The notes below the pieces were generated by a model that worked only from the letters and a program-made list of their open reading frames with translations, did no database searches and was not told where the DNA came from. Below are positions 2,421-64,000 of a stretch of 64,000 nucleotides of DNA, piece after piece. Every line of letters begins with the position of its first letter. Positions within the stretch are counted from its first letter, which is position 1. The DNA is from Deltaproteobacteria bacterium (GTDB lineage: Bacteria; Desulfobacterota; BSN033; UBA1163). A program made the translations under genes and the position numbers. Where the stretch lies: positions 21,823 through 85,822 of the forward strand of contig VGSS01000001.1 of the NCBI GenBank assembly GCA_016874935.1, in the 5' to 3' direction.

Positions 2421-3485
2421 AACATCCGTATCTCCCCAATTAATATGCCACCTCTTCGGGTTCAATAGCTCCTTATCCTGTTCGTGGGGATAGAGCATGA
2501 ATCGAAATGTTTTTGGACTCCGAAGAAACCCATGCTTCCTCAATAGGCGATAATAGGGATGGGTTTCAGGGACCATGAAACCCAGCAGGTCAACCCCTTC
2601 CTTCTGGCTGTAAGCGATTCCTTTCTTCCCCAGAGCCGTTAAAGCATCCGCATCGATCGCTAACAAGTCCACGATCACAGCGCTATTAAATCCAAGGAGA
2701 TCCACCTTTCTGAGAATGATATAACCCCTCATCTCCCCCTTCTCCATGGCCCTATAAATGATGTAAGTTCGCGTCGGGTGATGAAGGTAACGCCATGTCA
2801 TATAACTCCGGCTCCGAATTCCCATGATGGGATAAAGGGAAATGGCTTTATCCCAAAAATGTTCAAACTGACTATCCAGTTCCCCAACTTTTTCGATTTC
2901 AATCCTTCCACTTTCTTTTTTTCTTCCCATGGCAAAAAGAAGGTTATATAAAATTCTTGCCAATCCACCGATGAGAAGGCTTAAGGGTAAAAAATGGAGG
3001 TAACGGTTTGCGATGCCGCTAAATCTTATCGGATAGACCAGAACCGGAAGGGGCACCACTTCCTTCCAACCAATTTTTTTGAATCCAGAAATGGTCTCCT
3101 TCCGGATGGGATAGGCAGTCATGAGGGAGTTTCCCTCCTCTTTAACACGCCGGATAGCATACCTCCCCATCTCCTCAAAAATCCCTTTTCTCCGATAATC
3201 AGGGGAAACCATCAGGTCAACAGAGAGGGTCCCACGGACAACTTTCCTATGAACAGAAAACTGCCTTGGAAGATCCGCAAAATGACCGATGATCTTATCG
3301 CCATCCTCCACGACATAAATCAGGGCTTTCCTGTCCGGCCCTCCCATGAATTCCCATTGCCAGAATCTTGGATCCAATTTGTCTTTTTCCATCTCGCCGA
3401 AGACAGTCCTTCTGAGAGATAAAACCCCCTTCAGGTCTTTCTCATCCCCCTCCCGAACTTTCCAGCGATGCATCTCATCCTTCAT
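2415..3485 (-). CDS. GNAT/FemAB-like acetyltransferase (about 350 aa)
   Basis: Acyl-CoA N-acyltransferase-like pattern; sits in a polysaccharide locus. Family assignment is approximate. Confidence 0.5.
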   Translation of the reverse strand: MKDEMHRWKVREGDEKDLKGVLSLRRTVFGEMEKDKLDPRFWQWEFMGGPDRKALIYVVEDGDKIIGHFADLPRQFSVHRKVVRGTLSVDLMVSPDYRRKGIFEEMGRYAIRRVKEEGNSLMTAYPIRKETISGFKKIGWKEVVPLPVLVYPIRFSGIANRYLHFLPLSLLIGGLARILYNLLFAMGRKKESGRIEIEKVGELDSQFEHFWDKAISLYPIMGIRSRSYMTWRYLHHPTRTYIIYRAMEKGEMRGYIILRKVDLLGFNSAVIVDLLAIDADALTALGKKGIAYSQKEGVDLLGFMVPETHPYYRLLRKHGFLRSPKTFRFMLYPHEQDKELLNPKRWHINWGDTDVI

Positions 3486-3516
3486 CTTGCTTTGCTTTCC
3501 CTTTGGATACGCCTTT

Positions 3517-4821
3517 TTAGAAAAGTGACCTGTCTCCTTTTCTCTTTTTCCCGCTATAAGGGCGATAAGCCAGGTAGAAATTTATTCCCAACAGGCAGAA
3601 AGCTATTACCCCAACGATAAAGAGGATTTGGATCATGGTCTCGTGGAATAAAGCAATGGCCCCGACTTGAATGATGGTCAGAAGGGATAGGGGATAAAGG
3701 AAGATGTTTTGACGGGTGGCAAGATGATAATAGAGCAAAATGAAAGTCAGGGAAAAGAATGTCATATTGATCGAAAAAAACCTGATCAAAGGACCGCATT
3801 CCGGATAGACCTTTCCGGTAAGCAACTGGGCGATCCGGTCAGTGAAAAGATGAGAGATAAGAATTCCCATGACACAGAAGCTGCCTGCCACCATTAAACT
3901 CCGGATCAAGACCGGAAAGGTCCCCTTATTTTGGGCATCCAGCAAGGAAACTTTCGGAAACATGACCATGACCACCGGAAGGGGAAGAAAGAGGATTATT
4001 TTGCCCACCATTTGAGCAATGGAATAATAACCGGCCTCAATAGGAGTGAAGAGATGTTTGACTAAAATCAAATCAATCTGTGTTAATATCATAAAGCATA
4101 AAAGAGTCATTCCCACGGGGAAAAAAAATCGATAAGCTTCCGAAAGGGACGAAGAGTCGTCCAAGATCAGGGGTGGCTGAGGATGGGCCTCCTCCCCTTC
4201 CTTTCTCATCGAAAACCCTATTAGGATAAGGGAAAGAAAGATCGTGACAAAATATGCGATAGCAATTGACCCCATGGCGCCCAGCACTCCCCATCCTCCG
4301 ACAACCAAAAGGATGCCCACGAACAGTTTAAGCCCTCCATTGAGAAGTAGGTTTACAGTCAATAGTCCAAATTTTTGCAGGCCCTGCAGTCCGCCCCATG
4401 GAATCGGTGCGATCATGGCAAAAAAAAGGATGACCCCCGTAAGGAGGATGACCCCCCGGGAAGAAATCTGGAGAAAGGAGGAAAGAAGGGAACTTCCCAG
4501 GGCTATCGCTAAAAAGAAAAAGAGGGCCACAGCCATCATCACCAAGAGGAAGTGCTTGAGGAAATCTCTTGTCTGCCGGTGTTGGGACTTGGCCTGAAAG
4601 ACAGAAACAAACTTGGTAATGGTGGTTTGAACGGTATTGGCCGGCACCGTGATGAGCATAAAAAGGGCCATCAGGGCATTGAGCTGCCCGTAGTCAACAG
4701 GGGCAAGGTGCCTGACCATAAAAAAATGATAGAGCAAGTTAAACAGGTTGAAGAGACCGATCCCGATGAACATCAGCCCTGTGTTTTTGAAAAACTCGTC
4801 TTTCCACTTCAATAATATCAA
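3517..4821 (-). CDS. Polysaccharide biosynthesis protein / Wzx-like oligosaccharide flippase
   Basis: 434 aa, polytopic membrane protein with 10 or more hydrophobic helices; 4-bp overlap with the neighbouring gene. Confidence 0.7.
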   Translation of the reverse strand: MILLKWKDEFFKNTGLMFIGIGLFNLFNLLYHFFMVRHLAPVDYGQLNALMALFMLITVPANTVQTTITKFVSVFQAKSQHRQTRDFLKHFLLVMMAVALFFFLAIALGSSLLSSFLQISSRGVILLTGVILFFAMIAPIPWGGLQGLQKFGLLTVNLLLNGGLKLFVGILLVVGGWGVLGAMGSIAIAYFVTIFLSLILIGFSMRKEGEEAHPQPPLILDDSSSLSEAYRFFFPVGMTLLCFMILTQIDLILVKHLFTPIEAGYYSIAQMVGKIILFLPLPVVMVMFPKVSLLDAQNKGTFPVLIRSLMVAGSFCVMGILISHLFTDRIAQLLTGKVYPECGPLIRFFSINMTFFSLTFILLYYHLATRQNIFLYPLSLLTIIQVGAIALFHETMIQILFIVGVIAFCLLGINFYLAYRPYSGKKRKGDRSLF

Positions 4822-6362
4822 TCTATCACCTCGTAAATGATCAACTCCTGATCCGCCTTTCTGAATACCTCCTTCAAATCTTTTGATTGAATTAAATCTT
4901 CTGATTGAATGGCCTCGATAAACCCTCGATTTATCTCCCGAGTATTTTTATTGACGAGGATATAGCGAACTCCCTTTGTTTTGGCAAAACGGATAACCTC
5001 GTAATAAGATTCGACAGGGCCTCCGGTTCCGGAAATTTCCTGTTGTAACATGATAAATTCCCGATCCGCATAAAATGTCTCCTGAGGGCTATTGCTCATA
5101 ATGATAGCATCGGGAGGGGTGTTCTGTTTTAACCATACCCCAACTTTTTTCTGAAATGCGCGATGCCCCCTCTCCGGTTTCAAACTCTGCGGCAATTGAA
5201 CTAAAATCACCAAAGCGATAATCAAGAAAATGGCATTTTCTGGGCTGACGATCTTGATTTTCTCCACATATCTTTTCATTTCCAGAATCCCTGCGCCAGC
5301 CCAGAAGAGAGAAAGAGGGATCACCGGAATTGAAAAACGGATGGTGGAGGGCAGAAAGGTCGATAAAGAAAGCAAATGGAAGAGCACCAGGGAGGTCAGG
5401 AATAACTCATAGGCGATACCTTCGCGCCTAATTCTTATTAGCCCGAAAAATAAAATAAGCCACAATGAAAAATGGTAGGCCCTCAGATAGTGGTAGGCCA
5501 CAGGAGGGAAATAGTGAACAATATTTCTGGTCATCCAAATAATTTTTGAATTCTCCTTTTCAGGGCTGCTCTGTTCAACCCCTTTAAAGGGGGTAATCTC
5601 CTCTACGCCCTTTTTAAATAGTTGAGATTGCGCTTCAACAGCCTTCTTGCTAATTAGCCACTGACCTGTTTCCTGGCGGACATAGATAACGTATGGAAGC
5701 CCGAAGATAAATAGGCTCGAAACTAAAACTCCAATGGAAACAAGTGGTTTAAACCACCTCTTTTTAAGAATACCATCGACGGCTATCCAAGCCAGGTAAA
5801 CTAAAATGTAGCCAATCGCTTCCGGTCTTGTGAGATAGGCCAGACCAAGGGAAAATCCTGATAAAACCATTCTCCATACTTTATCCCTTTTCAGTCCTGT
5901 CCAGAAAAAATAAACCGATAGGACCAACAATCCCCAATAAGTGGCCTCGGTGAGCATCATTCCCGAGTAAGTCACCAGGTAGGGATGAAATGTGTAAAAA
6001 AGTGCTGAAAAGATGGCTACTTTTCTACCAACGGCTTCTTTTACTAAATAAAAGAGGGGAATAATAATTATGGTTCCAAAAAAAAGAGAGAGCAATCTTC
6101 CGGACATTTCAACGTGTGTGGTGTCCATCGAAAACAGGGAAATCAAGAAAGGATAAAAAGGGGGGGCAGGTGAAGATAATCCTTTGGTAAAATGATCCTT
6201 TAAAAAATCCCTTGCCACAAAACCATAATGTGCCCCATCGTAGGGAATCCCCTGCGCCATCAGGACGGCATAGAACCTCAGGATAAAGGCCGTTCCAATG
6301 AGAAGGAAGAGGATCTGTCTCTCATTAAGGCTTTTAAAGAAACAAATAATTTTATTGACCAT
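4818..6362 (-). CDS. ArnT/GT39-like membrane glycosyltransferase (lipid-carrier dependent)
   Basis: 514 aa with a multi-TM N-terminal domain and a soluble C-terminal domain. Family assignment is approximate. Confidence 0.5.
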   Translation of the reverse strand: MVNKIICFFKSLNERQILFLLIGTAFILRFYAVLMAQGIPYDGAHYGFVARDFLKDHFTKGLSSPAPPFYPFLISLFSMDTTHVEMSGRLLSLFFGTIIIIPLFYLVKEAVGRKVAIFSALFYTFHPYLVTYSGMMLTEATYWGLLVLSVYFFWTGLKRDKVWRMVLSGFSLGLAYLTRPEAIGYILVYLAWIAVDGILKKRWFKPLVSIGVLVSSLFIFGLPYVIYVRQETGQWLISKKAVEAQSQLFKKGVEEITPFKGVEQSSPEKENSKIIWMTRNIVHYFPPVAYHYLRAYHFSLWLILFFGLIRIRREGIAYELFLTSLVLFHLLSLSTFLPSTIRFSIPVIPLSLFWAGAGILEMKRYVEKIKIVSPENAIFLIIALVILVQLPQSLKPERGHRAFQKKVGVWLKQNTPPDAIIMSNSPQETFYADREFIMLQQEISGTGGPVESYYEVIRFAKTKGVRYILVNKNTREINRGFIEAIQSEDLIQSKDLKEVFRKADQELIIYEVID

Positions 6363-8930: not shown

Positions 8931-9932
8931 TTATAGGCTTATCGGAACACCATTCTTTTTCAAAGACTCCTGAGCGGCAACGAGGATCTTCACCACTTCA
9001 AGCCCATCCTCTCCCCCGGTTTTCGGTTTCTCCCTCGATTCGATACATCGGATAAAATGTTCTGCTTCGGCCCGCAGGGGTTCCACCATCTTGATATTCG
9101 GGATAGTAATATCCCCAAACCTCAGACTTAAATATTCCCCATAAGAATCATAAGATAGACTACCTACCCCTTTATCATAAATCTTCAATTTCTCAGATGC
9201 CTCCATATCATCGAAGACGACCATCTTTTTCGACCCTACGATCGTGATCTTCCTCGCCTTGTGGGGGTCCAACCAGCTCAAATGGACATTGGCCATTTTC
9301 CCATCGGAGAAGTAAAGGCTGAGGAAGACCACATCTTCGATATTCTTCTGGATGTAGCTTTCTCCATGAGCTGAGACCACAGCCGGTTTTTCATTGAGGA
9401 GCTTGAGAATAACGGAGAGGTCATGAGGAGCAAATGACCAGAGGGCATTTTCGTCCTGACGAATGATGCCAAGATTGACCCGCTGTGTATAGACGTAGTG
9501 GATTCTTCCCAGTTCTTCGGAAACAATCATCTCCTTCAATCGATCAACGACCGGATGGTATATCAGGAGGTGGCCGACCATGAGAATACGGCTTTTCTCT
9601 TCGGCGATCCTCACCAATTCGTCCGCATCCCTCACATTAAGAGCCAATGGCTTTTCGACCAGCACATCCTTGCCTGCTACCAAAGCCTCCCTGGCTAATG
9701 GGAAATGGGAAATAGCAGAAGAAGTGATGACCATTCCTTTCACCTCCGAATCTCGAAGAATAGGGCCAATCTCTTCCACCATTGTTGACTGGGGATAGGA
9801 CTTTTGAAGAACAGACAACTTAGATGGGTCCGTATCACAGATATATTTTAGTCGGACTTTTGGAATTTCAGAAAATACCCGGATATGATTCTTTCCCCAC
9901 GCCCCGGCTCCCGCCACCGCAATGCCAACCAT
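8931..9932 (-). CDS. Gfo/Idh/MocA-family NAD-dependent sugar oxidoreductase (WbpB-like)
   Basis: N-terminal Rossmann motif GIAVAGAGAWGKNH. Probable start MVGIAVAG at 9932, preceded by a GGGGAGG ribosome-binding site. Confidence 0.8.
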   Translation of the reverse strand: MVGIAVAGAGAWGKNHIRVFSEIPKVRLKYICDTDPSKLSVLQKSYPQSTMVEEIGPILRDSEVKGMVITSSAISHFPLAREALVAGKDVLVEKPLALNVRDADELVRIAEEKSRILMVGHLLIYHPVVDRLKEMIVSEELGRIHYVYTQRVNLGIIRQDENALWSFAPHDLSVILKLLNEKPAVVSAHGESYIQKNIEDVVFLSLYFSDGKMANVHLSWLDPHKARKITIVGSKKMVVFDDMEASEKLKIYDKGVGSLSYDSYGEYLSLRFGDITIPNIKMVEPLRAEAEHFIRCIESREKPKTGGEDGLEVVKILVAAQESLKKNGVPISL

Positions 9933-9989
9933 AGAACCTCCCCTTAAAAACCATTGCAAAATGGACAATTAGCAATGATCAATTAGCAG

Positions 9990-10110
9990 TTAATTAGAGT
10001 CTGTTTATAAATGCACTTTTTATGTCATGCCAGACTTGATCCGGCATCCAGACGTCGTCCCGACGAAAGTCGGGAACCATCTTAAAAGAGCTGGATTCCG
10101 GCCTTCGCCG
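9990..10110. repeat. Intergenic palindromic repeat, family R6 (tgtcat..ccggcatccagacgtcgtcccgacgaaagtcggga..ccggaatgac)
   Basis: Shares the ccagacgtcgtccc core and attccggc/gccggaat arms with copies at 51795-51950 and 57715-57790. Confidence 0.55.
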
Positions 10111-10204
10111 GAATGACGACCTTTTGAAAAATCTTTAGTTTATGGACAGACTCTAATTAAAAACATTTTGCAATGCTAATTTTGCAATGACTATTTTTCA
10201 ACGA

Positions 10205-11143
10205 TTATTTTAAACCCATTCCTTCAGGACATCCTTTGAGGTGCCACCAAAGTAGATAAGCATAAGTTGCCAATTTAATTCTCCATTTTTTTACTGCAAA
10301 ACCTGTCAGGATGCAAGCAATAACCATAGAAAGAAATTCAAACCCCAATTTAATCAGCAGTCCGATCAGAAGAACAAACCATTGCCGGAACCCTCTATTC
10401 TTTTTAAAAAATTGGTAGCGGGAGTGGTAATACTCGACCTTTGCCCTCTTTTTATCCTTCTCGGCACTCTTCCCTTGAAAATGATAAACTTCAGCTTGAG
10501 GCACGTGATAGACCTTCCATCCTGCTTTCTTCATCCGATAACACCAATCCGTCTCTTCTAAAAAGAGGAAGTAATCCTCATCTAACAACCCCACCTGCTC
10601 CATGGCCGCCCGCCTGACCATCATACAGGCGCCAATGACCGAATCCACCTCAACAGGATCACGATAGTCCCTGCCCTTCCCCGGAAATGTTTTCGGGAAA
10701 AACCATCTTAAAAGGCTTTTATTGAGCAGTTCTGTAGCCATGGATGGGAAATTGGCAATCGAGTTCTGTTTCGATCCATCGGAGTTGAGAAGCTGAACGC
10801 CCGCTACGCTTGCTGTTGGATAGCTATCCATAAAAGCCATCAGGGTTTCAATGGACCCTTGCTTCAGCCGTGTATCCGGGTTCAGGAGGAGAAAATATCT
10901 TCCTCTCGATAGCTTCAGGGCCTGATTATTAGCCCTGGCATATCCGAGGTTCAACGAATTGTGGATAAGGATCGCTTCAGGAAATTCTGCCCTCACCGCT
11001 TCTTCGCTTCCATCAATCGATCCGTTATCAACGACCAAGATTTCCCATGAATGTTCTTCTCTTTTCTGGAAAAGGGATTCCATACAATTAAGAAGATCAT
11101 CTTTAGTATTCCAATTGACAATAATAATGGATAGAGATATCAC
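10205..11143 (-). CDS. Family 2 glycosyltransferase
   Basis: SIIIVNWNTKD...DNGSIDGS and DxD motifs; C-terminal TM helix. Confidence 0.8.
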   Translation of the reverse strand: MISLSIIIVNWNTKDDLLNCMESLFQKREEHSWEILVVDNGSIDGSEEAVRAEFPEAILIHNSLNLGYARANNQALKLSRGRYFLLLNPDTRLKQGSIETLMAFMDSYPTASVAGVQLLNSDGSKQNSIANFPSMATELLNKSLLRWFFPKTFPGKGRDYRDPVEVDSVIGACMMVRRAAMEQVGLLDEDYFLFLEETDWCYRMKKAGWKVYHVPQAEVYHFQGKSAEKDKKRAKVEYYHSRYQFFKKNRGFRQWFVLLIGLLIKLGFEFLSMVIACILTGFAVKKWRIKLATYAYLLWWHLKGCPEGMGLK

Positions 11144-11174: not shown

Positions 11175-11882
11175 CTACAAATGCTTTGCTATAAATATCA
11201 GAATCTGACCTTCCAAGATAGTGTCGGAGACGAAATAAGGGTCCATTGGAAATATCTTTTTTGTCTTTTTCCTAACAAGCCATTTGATGAATGGATAGAT
11301 ACTCTTCCACTTTTTAACCTTCTTATTTGTTTCGACCCTACATATTTTAAATCCACATTTTTCAAGAATTAATTTCATTTCCGCATAGAAGATAGGATTG
11401 ATATGCTGTTGATAATAAACTTCCGTTTTATTTCTCTCCTCCGGCAGAAGAGGATCATAATATTCGAAGAAATCAAGATAGCCATAAAATAAAAATTTTA
11501 ACCTCGATTTTATTGTCATCACATTGGGTGTCGTAATAACCAGATAACCATCTCGCCTGACAAGTCTTGCAAATTCTTTTATCAAATGATGAGGGTTCTC
11601 TATATGTTCGATCCCCTCGACACAAACCACATAATCGAATGTGCCGTCTTTAAAGGGAAAAGATTTATTCAAATCGAATTGAATACATCTCCCGTTCCTG
11701 TATAGAATGTTTTCTCTTTGAATATCTCCTAGAAATAATTTAAACCCAAGTGCTTCAATATCTTCTGATAACGCCCCTTGCCCTGAAGGTGCATCGAGAA
11801 TAGTCCCTCTCATGAATTCCTTCACGCATTCGGACACCTTCTCATGAACACCCTTCCCGGAATATCTCCTTAGGGATTCCAT
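11175..11882 (-). CDS. Class I SAM-dependent methyltransferase
   Basis: ILDAPSGQGALS (motif I) and FDYVVCVEGIEH pattern. Confidence 0.75.
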   Translation of the reverse strand: MESLRRYSGKGVHEKVSECVKEFMRGTILDAPSGQGALSEDIEALGFKLFLGDIQRENILYRNGRCIQFDLNKSFPFKDGTFDYVVCVEGIEHIENPHHLIKEFARLVRRDGYLVITTPNVMTIKSRLKFLFYGYLDFFEYYDPLLPEERNKTEVYYQQHINPIFYAEMKLILEKCGFKICRVETNKKVKKWKSIYPFIKWLVRKKTKKIFPMDPYFVSDTILEGQILIFIAKHL

Positions 11883-61830: not shown

Positions 61831-63342
61831 ATGTATCAGAGAGCCAGCGGCATCCTTCTTCACATCACTTCACTCCCCTCGCCTTTTGGAATCGGCGATC
61901 TGGGGCCCTCCGCATATCAATTTGCCGACTTCCTAACTCAAACAAAACAGAGTTACTGGCAGGTCTTACCCCTCAACCCCACGGACGAGGCTTGTGGAAA
62001 TTCTCCTTACGGCAGTCCCTCCGCTTTTGCAGGAAATCCGCTCCTCATCAGCCCAGAGCTTCTCAGGGAGTTCGGTTTTCTCAAAAAGAGGGATATAGAA
62101 GAGATTCCTCCATTTCCGGAAGGGCGCTGTGACTACGCATCTGTCATCTCCTATAAATCAGACTTGCTTTGCCGTGCCTATGACTCTTTTAAAACGGCTG
62201 GAAAACAGAGGGCTGCCTTTGAAACATTCTGCAAGGAGAATGAAGAGTGGCTCGAAGATTTTGCCCTGTTCTTTGTGATTAAAAAACATTTTAAAGGAAA
62301 AGCATGGGGAGAATGGGAAAAGGATCTGAGGAACAGAAATTCCGAATATCTTGAAAGGGTCGGGAATAATCTTCGGGATGAGATCGAGCAGGAGAAGTTT
62401 TATCAGTATCTCTTCTTCAAGCAGTGGCTCTCCCTTAAGGCTTACTGCAATCAAAAGGGTATTCGATTGATCGGAGATATTCCCATCTATGTCAATTATG
62501 ATAGCTCTGATGTATGGACGAATTCCGAGATCTTCAATCTAAATAAGGAGAAGAAACCATTAGGGGTTGCAGGCGTCCCGCCTGACTACTTCAGCAAGAC
62601 CGGCCAGTTCTGGGGAAATCCGACTTTTCGCTGGGATCGTCTCCAAAAGACGGATTACCAATGGTGGTTCCATCGCATTTCCCATAACCTCCGCCTTTTT
62701 GATATTTTGCGTCTTGATCATTTCAGGGGTTTGATCGCCTACTGGGAAATTCCTTCCACGGAGACAACCGCTATGAACGGCAAATGGGTGGAGGCTCCTG
62801 CGGATGATTTTTTGACGGCTCTCCTGAAAAGATTCCCCGTTGACTCTTTCATTGCAGAGGATCTTGGAATCATAACGCCTGATGTGAAAGAAGTGATGGA
62901 TCGGTTCGGCTTTCCGGGCATGCGGGTCCTTCAATTTGCCTTCGGTGAAGACTCACCCAACCATCCCTATCTTCCTCACAACTTTATCTCCAACACCGTT
63001 GTCTATACCGGCACCCATGACAATAATACGATCAGGGGATGGTTCGAAAACGAGATTCATCCGGAGGACAAAAAGAGGGTGTTTCGCTACCTGGGGAGAG
63101 AGGTTTTCTCCGAAGACTTGCCGGCCGAACTCATCCGTCTTGGAATGATGTCCGTGGCCAATATGGTCATCACTCCTTTGCAGGATGTCTTAGGGCTGGG
63201 AGAAGAGACAAGGATGAACCGTCCTTCCACCCTATCGGGGAATTGGGAATGGCGGCTTCTGCCGGACCAGCTCACCTCTTCCTATGCGGAAATGCTTCTT
63301 GAATTGACTAAAATTTATGGGCGATCATGGGAATATCGATAA
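61831..63342 (+). CDS. malQ: 4-alpha-glucanotransferase (amylomaltase, GH77)
   Basis: N-terminal SGILLHITSLPSPFGIGDLG and GH77 catalytic-region motifs (…IGDIPIYV…, …LRLDHFRG…). Confidence 0.9.
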   Translation: MYQRASGILLHITSLPSPFGIGDLGPSAYQFADFLTQTKQSYWQVLPLNPTDEACGNSPYGSPSAFAGNPLLISPELLREFGFLKKRDIEEIPPFPEGRCDYASVISYKSDLLCRAYDSFKTAGKQRAAFETFCKENEEWLEDFALFFVIKKHFKGKAWGEWEKDLRNRNSEYLERVGNNLRDEIEQEKFYQYLFFKQWLSLKAYCNQKGIRLIGDIPIYVNYDSSDVWTNSEIFNLNKEKKPLGVAGVPPDYFSKTGQFWGNPTFRWDRLQKTDYQWWFHRISHNLRLFDILRLDHFRGLIAYWEIPSTETTAMNGKWVEAPADDFLTALLKRFPVDSFIAEDLGIITPDVKEVMDRFGFPGMRVLQFAFGEDSPNHPYLPHNFISNTVVYTGTHDNNTIRGWFENEIHPEDKKRVFRYLGREVFSEDLPAELIRLGMMSVANMVITPLQDVLGLGEETRMNRPSTLSGNWEWRLLPDQLTSSYAEMLLELTKIYGRSWEYR

Positions 63343-63392
63343 TCCTTGATTCCTCCGGCTCAAGAATATAGGGGGTAGGTAAATTGCCTGCT

Positions 63393-63440
63393 GGAGCCGG
63401 CGCGGGGATTTGAACCCCGGACCTACTGATTACGAAAATA
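63393..63440 (-). tRNA. Truncated tRNA gene, 3' portion only (T-arm, acceptor 3' strand and CCA)
   Basis: Reverse complement reads ...aggtccggggttcaaatccccgcgccggctcca. The T-stem cgggg/ccccg, a TTCAAAT loop, the acceptor strand, a discriminator and CCA are present. No complementary 5' acceptor strand or D-arm lies upstream. Confidence 0.4.
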
Positions 63441-63498
63441 TCGCCCACCTTCAATCATTTCAATAAGTTACCGAATTTCCTTAAACAATTTTGAAATC

Positions 63499-63759
63499 AT
63501 GTTACTACAATCTACCCCTGTTTTTCAAGTGGAGGTGGGAAAATCCATCGAAGAAATCGCAGAAGAGCATCGATCACCCGAATCATTGAGTTGCGTAATC
63601 GGGCTTGTGGTCTGCCGGAATGGAGAGTTCTTTGAGAGTTTCGCTGTAGAGTTTCCTCAAGACATCTCGCCCGATGGGATAATGGCTATTCTGCAAGATA
63701 CCGGAATCCAGCTAAAGACCTCATTGAAGTTGTTTGATGAAGAGAAAAAAGGAGAGTGA
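63499..63759 (+). CDS. Hypothetical small protein (86 aa), no recognisable family
   Basis: ORF only; sits right after the tRNA fragment. Confidence 0.2.
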   Translation: MLLQSTPVFQVEVGKSIEEIAEEHRSPESLSCVIGLVVCRNGEFFESFAVEFPQDISPDGIMAILQDTGIQLKTSLKLFDEEKKGE

Positions 63760-64000
63760 CATTAAATGTAGTGTCTTCAGATTGAGAGGGAAATATTTCC
63801 AAGAGGACCGTTATAAACCAGAATGCAACGTGCCAAAATATTCCTCCCGATTAGGGCGACGATATTCTGGTTCCTCAATTCACTTCCTAATACCGCATTC
63901 AAACTTAGGATAATCGTAGTTCCAGGAAAGGCCAATTTTATGGGGAAAAGTTCTTGGGCCGCTTGCCCTTGAGGTGTAAACACGGTCGATACTCCAACCG

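Follow-up and report, generated by a model that had tools for sequence, protein, structure and literature searches.

A 45-nt piece of a tRNA-Thr(CGU) gene lies beside malQ, near one end of the 64,000-nt stretch of DNA analysed here (the window), which comes from an uncultured deltaproteobacterium. We are nearly certain that this fragment is the scar of an integration event. It is most probably the attR of a decaying, integrase-less 2.9-kb remnant of an element that once integrated into a tRNA-Thr(CGU) gene convergent to malQ. The sequences directly show the repeat structure of the locus, the foreign DNA that the repeats enclose, the absence of an integrase, the decay of the enclosed genes and the relations of the insert to a family of similar elements. 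tRNA-linked islands with a duplicated tRNA 3' part are textbook knowledge, integrase-less remnants included, and the thrW anticodon-loop site is among the oldest examples. The scar itself is therefore of a routine and known kind; what is new is the locus and the rare element family, carried by uncultured bacteria, to which it leads.

A tRNA-Thr(CGU) 3' fragment beside malQ

The coding region of MalQ spans 61831-63342, and the tRNA fragment follows on the opposite strand (Table 1). Its minus-strand sequence is TTCGTAATCAGTAGGTCCGGGGTTCAAATCCCCGCGCCGGCTCCA. Read 5' to 3', it begins with a 7-nt anticodon loop carrying CGT (Thr), which is followed by TCAGT, the 3' strand of the anticodon stem. Then come a 5-nt variable loop, a T arm (CGGGG/TTCAAAT/CCCCG), the acceptor 3' strand CGCCGGC, the discriminator T and CCA. 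The bases on the 5' side of the loop (gcgatatt; ...ggtgggcgatatt) contain no pairing anticodon-stem strand, no D arm and no 5' acceptor strand. A first-pass annotation of the window had already reported a truncated tRNA 3' end on the minus strand downstream of malQ, at 63393-63440; we confirm it, with boundaries that differ by 1 to 4 nt.

ARAGORN called zero tRNAs in the whole 64-kb window, and Rfam at the gathering threshold gave no match at the fragment. The same annotation had held that no complete tRNA gene stands here; neither program called one, whether uninterrupted or intron containing. Neither recognized the complete cloverleaf that would be expected of a functional tRNA gene, split and intron-containing types included. 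A permissive Rfam search of 63300-63600 returned sub-threshold tRNA-like matches only (mascRNA, 20 bits; 3' part of tmRNA, 11 bits). The 25-nt 3' end of the fragment is present once in the window, compared with 0 copies in 100 dinucleotide shuffles. We conclude that the fragment is not a complete tRNA, and it accounts for a tRNA-like sequence that gene finders have rightly passed over.

Table 1. Features of the integration locus in window coordinates; positions above 64000 are window equivalents on the extension contig L001
Feature	Position	Strand	Remark
B' flank, 49-nt chromosomal spacer from malQ stop to fragment CCA	63343-63391		Ancestral site of the tRNA-Thr 3' end
tRNA-Thr(CGU) 3' part, 45 nt, anticodon loop to CCA	63392-63436	minus	Probable attR copy of the att core
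Anticodon loop TTCGTAA	63430-63436	minus	Left edge of the identity block; presumed 7-nt overlap (strand exchange)
Insert, 2,895 bp	63437-66331		L001 2558-5452; about 0.56 kb (63437-64000) within the window
P-arm spacer, 12 nt, aatatcgCCCAC	63437-63448	plus	From core to inverted-repeat arm
Inverted-repeat arm, 22 nt, CTTCAATCATTTCAATAAGTTA	63449-63470	plus	P-arm partner of the copy abutting the intact-tRNA CCA
IHF-consensus-like 13-mer TTTCAATAAGTTA	63458-63470	plus	12/13 match to WATCAANNNNTTR
86-aa ORF	63499-63759	plus	No family match
GGTGGGAAAA motif	63534-63543	plus	Candidate arm-type recombinase site, or ribosome-binding region of the 86-aa ORF
Retropepsin-like (clan AA aspartic protease) gene, 158 aa, 3' part in window	63777-64000	minus	Full ORF L001 2898-3374
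Intact tRNA-Thr(cgt)	66332-66406	minus	2.3 kb beyond the window end
Reconstructed attB junction			tRNA 5' half + 45 nt + gcaggcaatttacc
Reconstructed attP junction			...taacttattgaaatgattgaaggtgggcgatatt + 45 nt + atcatttcaataagttaaaaaaacgg

The fragment repeats the 3' part of an intact tRNA gene 2.9 kb away

Beyond the window the locus was followed on several JGI and Logan metagenome contigs that carry MalQ together with the 86-aa ORF. One of these, Ga0194119_10008141 (L001; window coordinate = L001 coordinate + 60,879), shares 2,170 bases with the window without a single difference, and four more contigs from other samples are identical to L001 throughout the insert region. The sole tRNA that ARAGORN called on the extension contigs is a tRNA-Thr(cgt) at L001 5453-5527, on the minus strand. 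A repeat search joined it to the fragment through a direct repeat (D1) of 45 nt, 100% identical, with a spacing of 2,940 bp and both copies in the same orientation. The identity begins at loop position 32, the first base of the anticodon loop, and ends with CCA; the flanking sequences differ. No more diverged extra copies of the tRNA were found in the locus. The suggestion that the fragment is an integration scar, an att site whose intact tRNA with the identical 3' 45 nt should be sought elsewhere, was thereby borne out, and the partner tRNA proved to lie just outside the window.

The native arrangement can be read from relatives. We fetched MalQ relatives of 86-72% identity from deltaproteobacterial and Syntrophorhabdus-like MAGs. 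In nine of them a tRNA-Thr(cgt) gene is convergent to malQ, across a gap of 2 to 2,354 nt that is shortest in L015 (2 nt), L014 (17 nt) and L019 (139 nt), and in none of these nine is there a tRNA fragment. The 5' flank of the tRNA, attcttatttatcattttttagaatgcccgtcaatc, is common to L001 and seven relatives, L013 being the exception. Because this flank is conserved, the intact tRNA of L001 has its native upstream region. The fragment, in turn, stands 49 nt from the malQ stop, where the relatives place the 3' end of their tRNA. With a native 5' flank at the intact copy and a fragment at the native 3' position, we assign the fragment as attR and place attL in the intact tRNA. The resulting order is the one expected after integration: a tRNA with a native 5' half and an element-derived 3' half, the insert, the displaced native 3' half and malQ.

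The ancestral and circular forms were sought as well. The exact 62-nt pattern of an empty site (tRNA plus B' flank) had 0 matches in JGI metagenome contigs, and the attP junction was not found in viral contigs. In IMG/VR, the attL and attR junctions, the 19-mer described below and the P'-arm pattern had 0 matches each. Those relatives in which malQ adjoins the tRNA share at most 86% MalQ identity with our locus, and their intergenic DNA is not alignable to it.

Perhaps the fragment is instead half of a functional split, permuted or intron-containing tRNA whose 5' half lies elsewhere? Its T arm, acceptor strand and CCA are intact, and in the alignment to the mascRNA model seven bases of the P-arm spacer (GUGGGCG) could pair with the acceptor 3' strand with one mismatch. 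However, neither ARAGORN nor Rfam makes a call at the fragment, a normal tRNA-Thr(cgt) with its own conserved upstream flank is present 2.9 kb off, and the spacer pairing, which would form a tRNA-like minihelix, is not conserved in the tRNA-Lys members of the element family described below. We regard an unconventional tRNA as exceedingly improbable and hold to an integration scar.

The insert is foreign, decaying and without an integrase

The GC content of the insert is 41.8%, compared with 47.4% for the window. By tblastn, its eight ORFs have no match in the syntenic loci of the relatives or anywhere else in the window or L001. The insert between the repeats is foreign DNA, and the fragment marks the boundary between the core chromosome, represented by malQ, and this foreign and decaying segment. 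The first-pass annotation had suggested that the 86-aa ORF and the lower-GC DNA after it might belong to an element extending beyond the window. That suggestion proved right, but the size envisaged did not: the element occupies 2.9 kb, not tens of kilobases.

Apart from the 86-aa ORF, several small genes are found in the insert. The 158-aa retropepsin-like protein matches Pfam Asp_protease_2 (E 4e-4), and a DUF5678 gene that is paired with it outside the window was recognized at E 9e-5; both matches fall just under the gathering score. There are also an 83-aa ORF and a 58-70-aa ORF. Three further features show decay, which is the least number of such marks in the insert. A proteasome-family gene is split at an a/t run, where its N-terminal 113 codons give way to C-terminal ~110 codons in another frame. 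An RNase HI gene is 5' truncated: its 99 aa cover only positions 50-132 of the 143-position NCBIfam model. Finally, ~100 nt at L001 ~4745-4835 are homologous to the 3' end of the 144-aa gene of a related element (L269) and contain an in-frame stop (KPKANL*LQGLLGLAAFVLG... vs L269 KPKANWELQGLLGLAIFVVG...).

In tyrosine-integrase elements an integrase gene is present inside the element, usually beside attL, and the first-pass annotation had advised looking for one in the DNA that follows. No insert ORF matched an integrase in Pfam (Phage_integrase) or PHROG, and searches with phmmer and with a profile built from ten metagenomic integrases found no match among the ORFs of at least 100 aa of the window and L001. 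A tblastn search for an integrase remnant produced one weak match (E 6e-4), to the non-catalytic C-terminal tail of a single query, which we judged spurious. The insert, the 64-kb window and the 7 kb past the tRNA thus yielded neither an integrase nor a credible remnant of one.

Since the integrase is absent and pseudogene features are present, we conclude that the insert is a decayed derivative and not an intact island or prophage; the three pseudogene features likewise favor a dead remnant. One observation sits awkwardly here: two 45-nt copies that are still identical fit poorly with a long decay, unless the decay proceeded mainly by deletion. The locus otherwise resembles the degenerate islands and islets linked to tRNA genes, which share with it a direct repeat of the tRNA 3' end, a foreign composition and an interval between malQ and the tRNA that varies among genomes (here from 2 to 2,354 nt). 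There is no difference of substance, and the locus is that category minus the integrase.

Attachment-site arms and IHF-like sites

The repeat search also returned an inverted repeat (I1) of 22 nt, 95% complementary, one arm of which is in the P arm while its partner ends in the CCA of the intact tRNA. In the reconstructed attP the 45-nt core stands between the two arms: 12 nt separate the anticodon loop from the upstream arm, and the other arm directly adjoins CCA. Each of them contains a 13-mer that agrees at 12 of 13 positions with WATCAANNNNTTR, the IHF consensus as cited in PMC7581858. Relative to the core, these putative IHF sites fall at -34(-) and +49(+); in SfV/P22-type attP the IHF-like sites fall at -31(-) and +50(+). 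IHF-consensus sites on both arms are what a lambda/P22-type attP would be expected to carry. Sites with at most one mismatch to the consensus occur about once per kb in the window, so it is placement and conservation, and not the match by itself, that carry the argument.

The exact 19-mer CAATCATTTCAATAAGTTA has 72 occurrences in metagenome contigs, at least 28 of which are flush after the CCA of a tRNA or a tRNA 3' fragment. The preceding tRNAs are those for Met, Leu, Lys, Arg, Val, Pro, Cys, Ala and Gln. The integrases adjoining these sites are only 22-30% identical and are found in both orientations, which argues against a protein site specific to one element. A scan of IMG/VR with the right half of the motif fixed gave more than 120 matches, mostly enterobacterial thrW followed by TTTAAATCAATAAGTTA, in some cases with an intact tRNA (attL) and in others with P arm plus core (attP). 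Phage SfV itself was recovered among them (L127, SfV attP). With the left half fixed (CCA+ATCATTTCA), 8 of 13 distinct tRNA ends continue as A-NNNN-TTA, in which the N4 is variable and the A and TTR are kept; none of the four non-tRNA matches does so, and the chance rate is 1/128 per site. To judge from sequence conservation, this combination of a variable N4 and a kept TTR is that of an IHF consensus at a fixed offset from the tRNA end.

That many unrelated elements integrating into tRNA genes have an IHF-type site flush with CCA is in essence probably no new finding, although the literature searched contained no statement of it. Searches for the motif string turned up no paper, and the E. 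coli genomes searched contained no match. A 23-nt match in Proteus is intergenic, AT rich and not accompanied by a tRNA, and we discounted it as a chance match. Terminal inverted repeats of the transposon type, or some universal end of elements, were also considered as an identity for the arms. We rejected both because no target-site duplication is present, the distances of the arms from the 45-nt repeat are 0 and 12 nt, the adjoining integrases are divergent and the half-anchored searches reveal the IHF pattern.

Among the closest known systems are the thrW phages. SfI, SfII, SfV, SfX and P22 share a 46-nt att core in thrW, ATTCGTAATGCG...GGCACCA (PMC3636060). There, as here, the target is a tRNA-Thr with anticodon CGU and the core extends from the anticodon loop to CCA, over 46 nt in the phages and 45 nt in our locus, the core of SfI/SfV/P22 beginning one base earlier. 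Both also have an IHF-consensus site that starts 4-5 nt after CCA and an inverted IHF-like site ~31-34 nt upstream of the core, and the 11-mer TCAATAAGTTA stands at the same offset after CCA. The thrW phages differ in having enterobacterial hosts, whereas ours is an uncultured deltaproteobacterium with another tRNA sequence; moreover, the insert here is only 2.9 kb long, has no integrase, xis or phage genes, and its junctions have no match in IMG/VR. Apart from the integrase, the locus nonetheless has what defines an anticodon-loop site of the P22/thrW type: a direct repeat of the tRNA 3' end, a block of identity from loop to CCA, native flanks and a foreign insert. It offers a compact att design of that type in an uncultured deltaproteobacterium, in which the anticodon loop is the likely place of crossover and the IHF-type sites are inverted, one of them directly adjoining CCA.

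We propose that a circular element, whose attP core duplicated the final 45 nt of the tRNA, recombined inside the 7-nt anticodon loop of the tRNA gene. The enzyme would have been a tyrosine integrase acting in a lambda/P22-type reaction, with the arms of the anticodon stem as core sites and strand exchange in the loop, the presumed site of crossover. One product, attL, would be the intact tRNA on the side of the insert away from malQ, in which a chromosomal 5' half is joined to a 3' half supplied by the element; in the other, attR, the original 3' half would have been displaced and stranded next to malQ. The inverted IHF-consensus-like sites (-34, +49) would then be the remains of a lambda/P22-type attP and would have bent the arms onto the core. 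The integrase module would later have been lost by deletion, to leave the present insert as a dead remnant. A 2002 survey by Williams of integration sublocations within tRNA and tmRNA genes reportedly includes an anticodon-loop class, and in 1994 Smith-Mungo, Chan and Landy are said to have located two IHF sites, H and H', one to each side of the P22 core.

A partial tRNA could also arise with no site-specific integration at all, by local duplication or slippage, or as a 5'-truncated second tRNA-Thr pseudogene, the DNA between the copies then being unrelated. The absence of an integrase and the failure to recover an empty site are in keeping with such an origin. However, the boundaries of the repeat fall exactly at the anticodon loop and at CCA, the inverted IHF-like sites match the attP geometry of SfV/P22, the same arms and ORF recur at a tRNA-Lys gene in other genomes, and the intervening DNA is missing from the relatives. 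We consider a non-integrative origin very unlikely.

Further short sequences in the arms may be recombinase sites. Copies resembling the GGTGGGAAAA motif occur two or three times in tandem in the related elements L268-L271, as GGTGGGAAGA / GGTGGGAAAAAGGTGGAAAG in the P' arms and as an inverted copy in the spacer. Candidate GGTGGGAA repeats are visible in both arms.

The 86-aa ORF marks a family of elements at two tRNA genes

The 86-aa ORF has few homologues. Among 5.8 billion proteins, a single-sequence query found 6 clusters at E <=1e-27 and a profile found 11. The conserved part of the protein starts from about residue 14-15, and the true start may be a GTG at about 63535. No match was obtained in Pfam, PHROG, NCBIfam or PADLOC. 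An AlphaFold model (pLDDT 76) predicts an alpha-beta-beta-alpha fold, for which Foldseek found no match at E <=0.001 in PDB or BFVD. In six of the seven members looked up, the ORF adjoins a P arm or a tRNA 3' fragment; L273, the remaining one, has it near an integrase, with no tRNA. The 86-aa ORF is a conserved marker gene of a rare element family, located beside the P arm.

Five contigs (L268-L272) carry homologues of 75-83% identity, each behind a P arm as in L001. The shared P arm has the form aatttgaCCCACCTTCAATCATT(C/T)CAATAAGTTA and is followed by a homologous leader of ~40 nt. In these contigs the adjoining 45-nt fragment belongs to tRNA-Lys(CTT). The CCCACC of the P-arm spacer is kept in the tRNA-Lys members, and in the alignment L268-L271 have aat(a/t)t(c/g)(g/a)CCCACCTT. 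In place of the IHF-like 13-mer the tRNA-Lys members have TTCCAATAAGTTA; this departs from the IHF consensus at two positions, so another protein may bind at the arms. The tRNA-Thr(CGU) and tRNA-Lys(CUU) targets share GGTAGAGCAACTGA-[loop]-TCAGTAGGT, with loops that differ at 2 of 7 positions, and because the stems are shared the presumed core-binding sequences are the same.

One tRNA-Lys member, L268, is complete. A perfect 45-nt repeat lies at 9846-9890 and 11714-11758, 1,868 bp apart, with the second copy inside an intact tRNA-Lys. There ATCATTCCAATAAGTT is flush with CCA, and ~75 nt of the P' arm are homologous to that of L001, TTGATAATCAAG included. The genes between the repeats are ORF82, an 88-aa ORF and a dCTP-deaminase-like gene, with no integrase. 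L271 represents the chromosomal site of L268 in a related genome, where the cargo is instead a 144-aa gene together with an intact proteasome-family gene of 261 aa. In L270 the cargo includes PDC-M11A/B, a candidate system in PADLOC (E 4e-206 and 2e-43), and L269 carries Dcm, Vsr, a HATPase_c_3 protein and a methyltransferase. The sequences show a family that has the 86-aa ORF and both arms, P and P', in common, uses tRNA-Lys(CUU) as well as tRNA-Thr(CGU), and has variable cargo, much of it of defence type. The fragment beside malQ is a pointer to this rare family, with the same arms on two different tRNAs. We do not claim a proteasome cargo common to L001 and L271: the split gene of the former and the 261-aa gene of the latter both match Pfam Proteasome, but there is no tblastn similarity between them at 1e-3.

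Might these elements still move? The insert could be a non-autonomous cassette, mobilizable in cis through functional attL and attR arms, with the integrase provided in trans by a related element. This would resemble CIMEs, which are reportedly integrase-less derivatives of ICEs such as ICESt1 and ICESt3 of Streptococcus thermophilus and are said to have been treated by Pavlovic et al. in 2004 and Bellanger et al. in 2011. CIMEs, like the insert, are short segments that lie between an attL and an attR at a conserved gene's 3' end; they lack recombination and transfer genes, keep their att arms, and vary in cargo between copies. The L001 insert indeed has such bounds and neither an integrase nor transfer genes, and L268 is a second instance. 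Neither the 2.9-kb insert at tRNA-Thr nor the 1.87-kb one at tRNA-Lys has an integrase, yet in each the 45-nt repeats are perfect and the two IHF-like sites are kept, and their P and P' arms are homologous. L268 and L271 have different cargo at the same tRNA-Lys site behind the same P arm and ORF, and defence-type cargo recurs elsewhere in the family (PDC-M11A/B, Dcm with Vsr, the dCTP-deaminase-like gene).

However, the L001 copy is visibly decaying, with three pseudogene features, and in this it differs from CIMEs. No helper, that is, no cognate element with the same arms and an integrase, was found in the searches of metagenome contigs and IMG/VR, nor was an empty site or a circular junction, and there are just two complete instances. 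We therefore think it rather unlikely that the insert is a CIME-like cassette. It is similarly doubtful that the ORF86 elements are integrase-less mini-islands that are still moved in trans and swap defence-type cargo, as cassette-like vehicles for defence genes at tRNA genes; their P22-like attP scaffold would comprise a pair of inverted IHF-type sites, the conserved P and P' arms and a single small conserved gene. The corollary, a retargeting of such mini-islands between tRNA-Thr(CGU) and tRNA-Lys(CUU) for which only the 7-nt overlap and the downstream tRNA copy would have to change, we likewise rate as improbable. If the family were mobilizable without an integrase of its own, it would be of interest for the shuffling of defence genes. 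Integron gene cassettes offer an analogy only. They too are small integrase-less units with a recombination site and a variable, often defence-type cargo, but our locus lacks an attC-type folded site, an array and a platform integrase, and its att site is of the lambda type, on a tRNA gene.

A dead remnant of a once complete element remains the better account of the insert, and distant homologues of the 86-aa ORF bear on what that element was. In L276, the 3' end of an integrase gene abuts a reversed tRNA-Gln(CTG) fragment, which is followed by the ORF; this arrangement forms a junction of attP-like or tandem type. L273 has a phage-like setting, in which ~700 nt separate the ORF from a 265-aa integrase downstream of it. 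The presence of distant ORF86 homologues beside integrases suggests that complete ancestors of the family are autonomous.

An IHF-like site follows the CCA end of many tRNAs

The 19-mer CAATCATTTCAATAAGTTA, which resembles the IHF consensus and belongs to the inverted-repeat arms flanking the 45-nt att core, is found directly after at least 28 CCA ends of tRNAs or tRNA fragments. In the metagenome loci (L043-L114) and the IMG/VR loci (L116-L267), numerous tRNA genes and 3' fragments, of different identities, are followed by an IHF-consensus-like site of the form …TTCAA/ATCAA-N4-TTA, which begins 4-5 nt past their CCA. The integrases adjoining these tRNAs are mutually unrelated, sharing 22-30% identity. 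The pattern suggests that att sites of the anticodon-loop type have converged on a common placement rule, in which the bend made by the host factor would take the first free position past the tRNA.

Four of the metagenome loci (L055, L081, L085 and L105) form an unrelated second set with another tRNA-Thr(CGT) variant and the layout seen in the window: the 45-nt fragment, a 15-nt spacer (taggaaaggaggccc) and, after it, the 19-mer. In L081, the CCA side of the fragment is 14 nt away from the end of a 415-aa integrase, an arrangement that is an attP-like or tandem junction.

The motif was also seen in other surroundings. In L058 (287-3550), two neighbouring tyrosine recombinases of 354 and 336 aa, 34% identical and followed by a 401-aa gene, lie beside tRNA-Val(TAC) and the motif, arranged in a Tn554-like or recombinase-trio-like way. 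The matching tRNA-Val fragment is found in L059, followed by the motif and a terminator hairpin, and forms an attP-type junction. Finally, the 2,269-nt locus L071 holds a 378-aa integrase gene with a decayed tRNA 3' end and the motif on either side (…GTTCACCA followed by ATCATTTCAATAAGTTA, and an imperfect inverse of the same), the two copies being inverted and 1.5 kb apart. L071 looks like a minimal integrase-only unit.

Could the window's own fragment fold with its flank? The P-arm spacer GUGGGCG (window 63437-63450) could form six of seven pairs with the fragment's acceptor 3' strand (63392-63402, minus strand), and the Rfam mascRNA model scores the resulting tRNA-like minihelix at 20 bits. 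This pairing is not kept in the tRNA-Lys members of the element family. Hence, the minihelix is probably a chance match.

Gene content of the insert and its surroundings

Metagenome contig L001 carries the insert past the window end. The retropepsin-like protease, which has a weak PADLOC match (PDC-M08B, E 0.006), and the DUF5678 protein may constitute a two-gene module. The split proteasome-family gene has the same sequence in five contigs from different samples, which excludes an assembly error confined to one sample as the cause of the split.

Genes on L001 at and past the window end
Feature	L001	Window equivalent	Remark
Retropepsin-like aspartic protease	2898-3374	63777-64253	overlaps DUF5678 partner gene
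DUF5678 protein	3361-3618	64240-64497	overlaps protease gene
Proteasome-family (Ntn-hydrolase)	3874-4579		outside window; split by single frameshift at a/t homopolymer run
HicB-like (UPF0150)/HicA toxin-antitoxin pair	9775-10233		outside window; ~4 kb past intact tRNA-Thr

Next to the toxin-antitoxin pair, on its far side, are genes for an FG-GAP repeat protein and for a DUF4926 protein. Variability may thus extend to the region past tRNA-Thr.

Among relatives, malQ and tRNA-Thr are separated by 2 to 2,354 nt. In several of the relatives L008-L013, this interval contains two ORFs, a small Cys-rich lipoprotein-like one (…CPKCGDFFKSKQGAE…) and one on the opposite strand, and no tRNA fragment. 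Even where att scars are missing, the stretch between malQ and tRNA-Thr is a variable spot.

In two family members (L274 and L277), an inserted small Cys-rich, HNH-like ORF (MKQCWRCRTTKEQTSIHHINGKSND…) separates the conserved P-arm leader from the homologue of ORF86, the family's 86-aa marker ORF.
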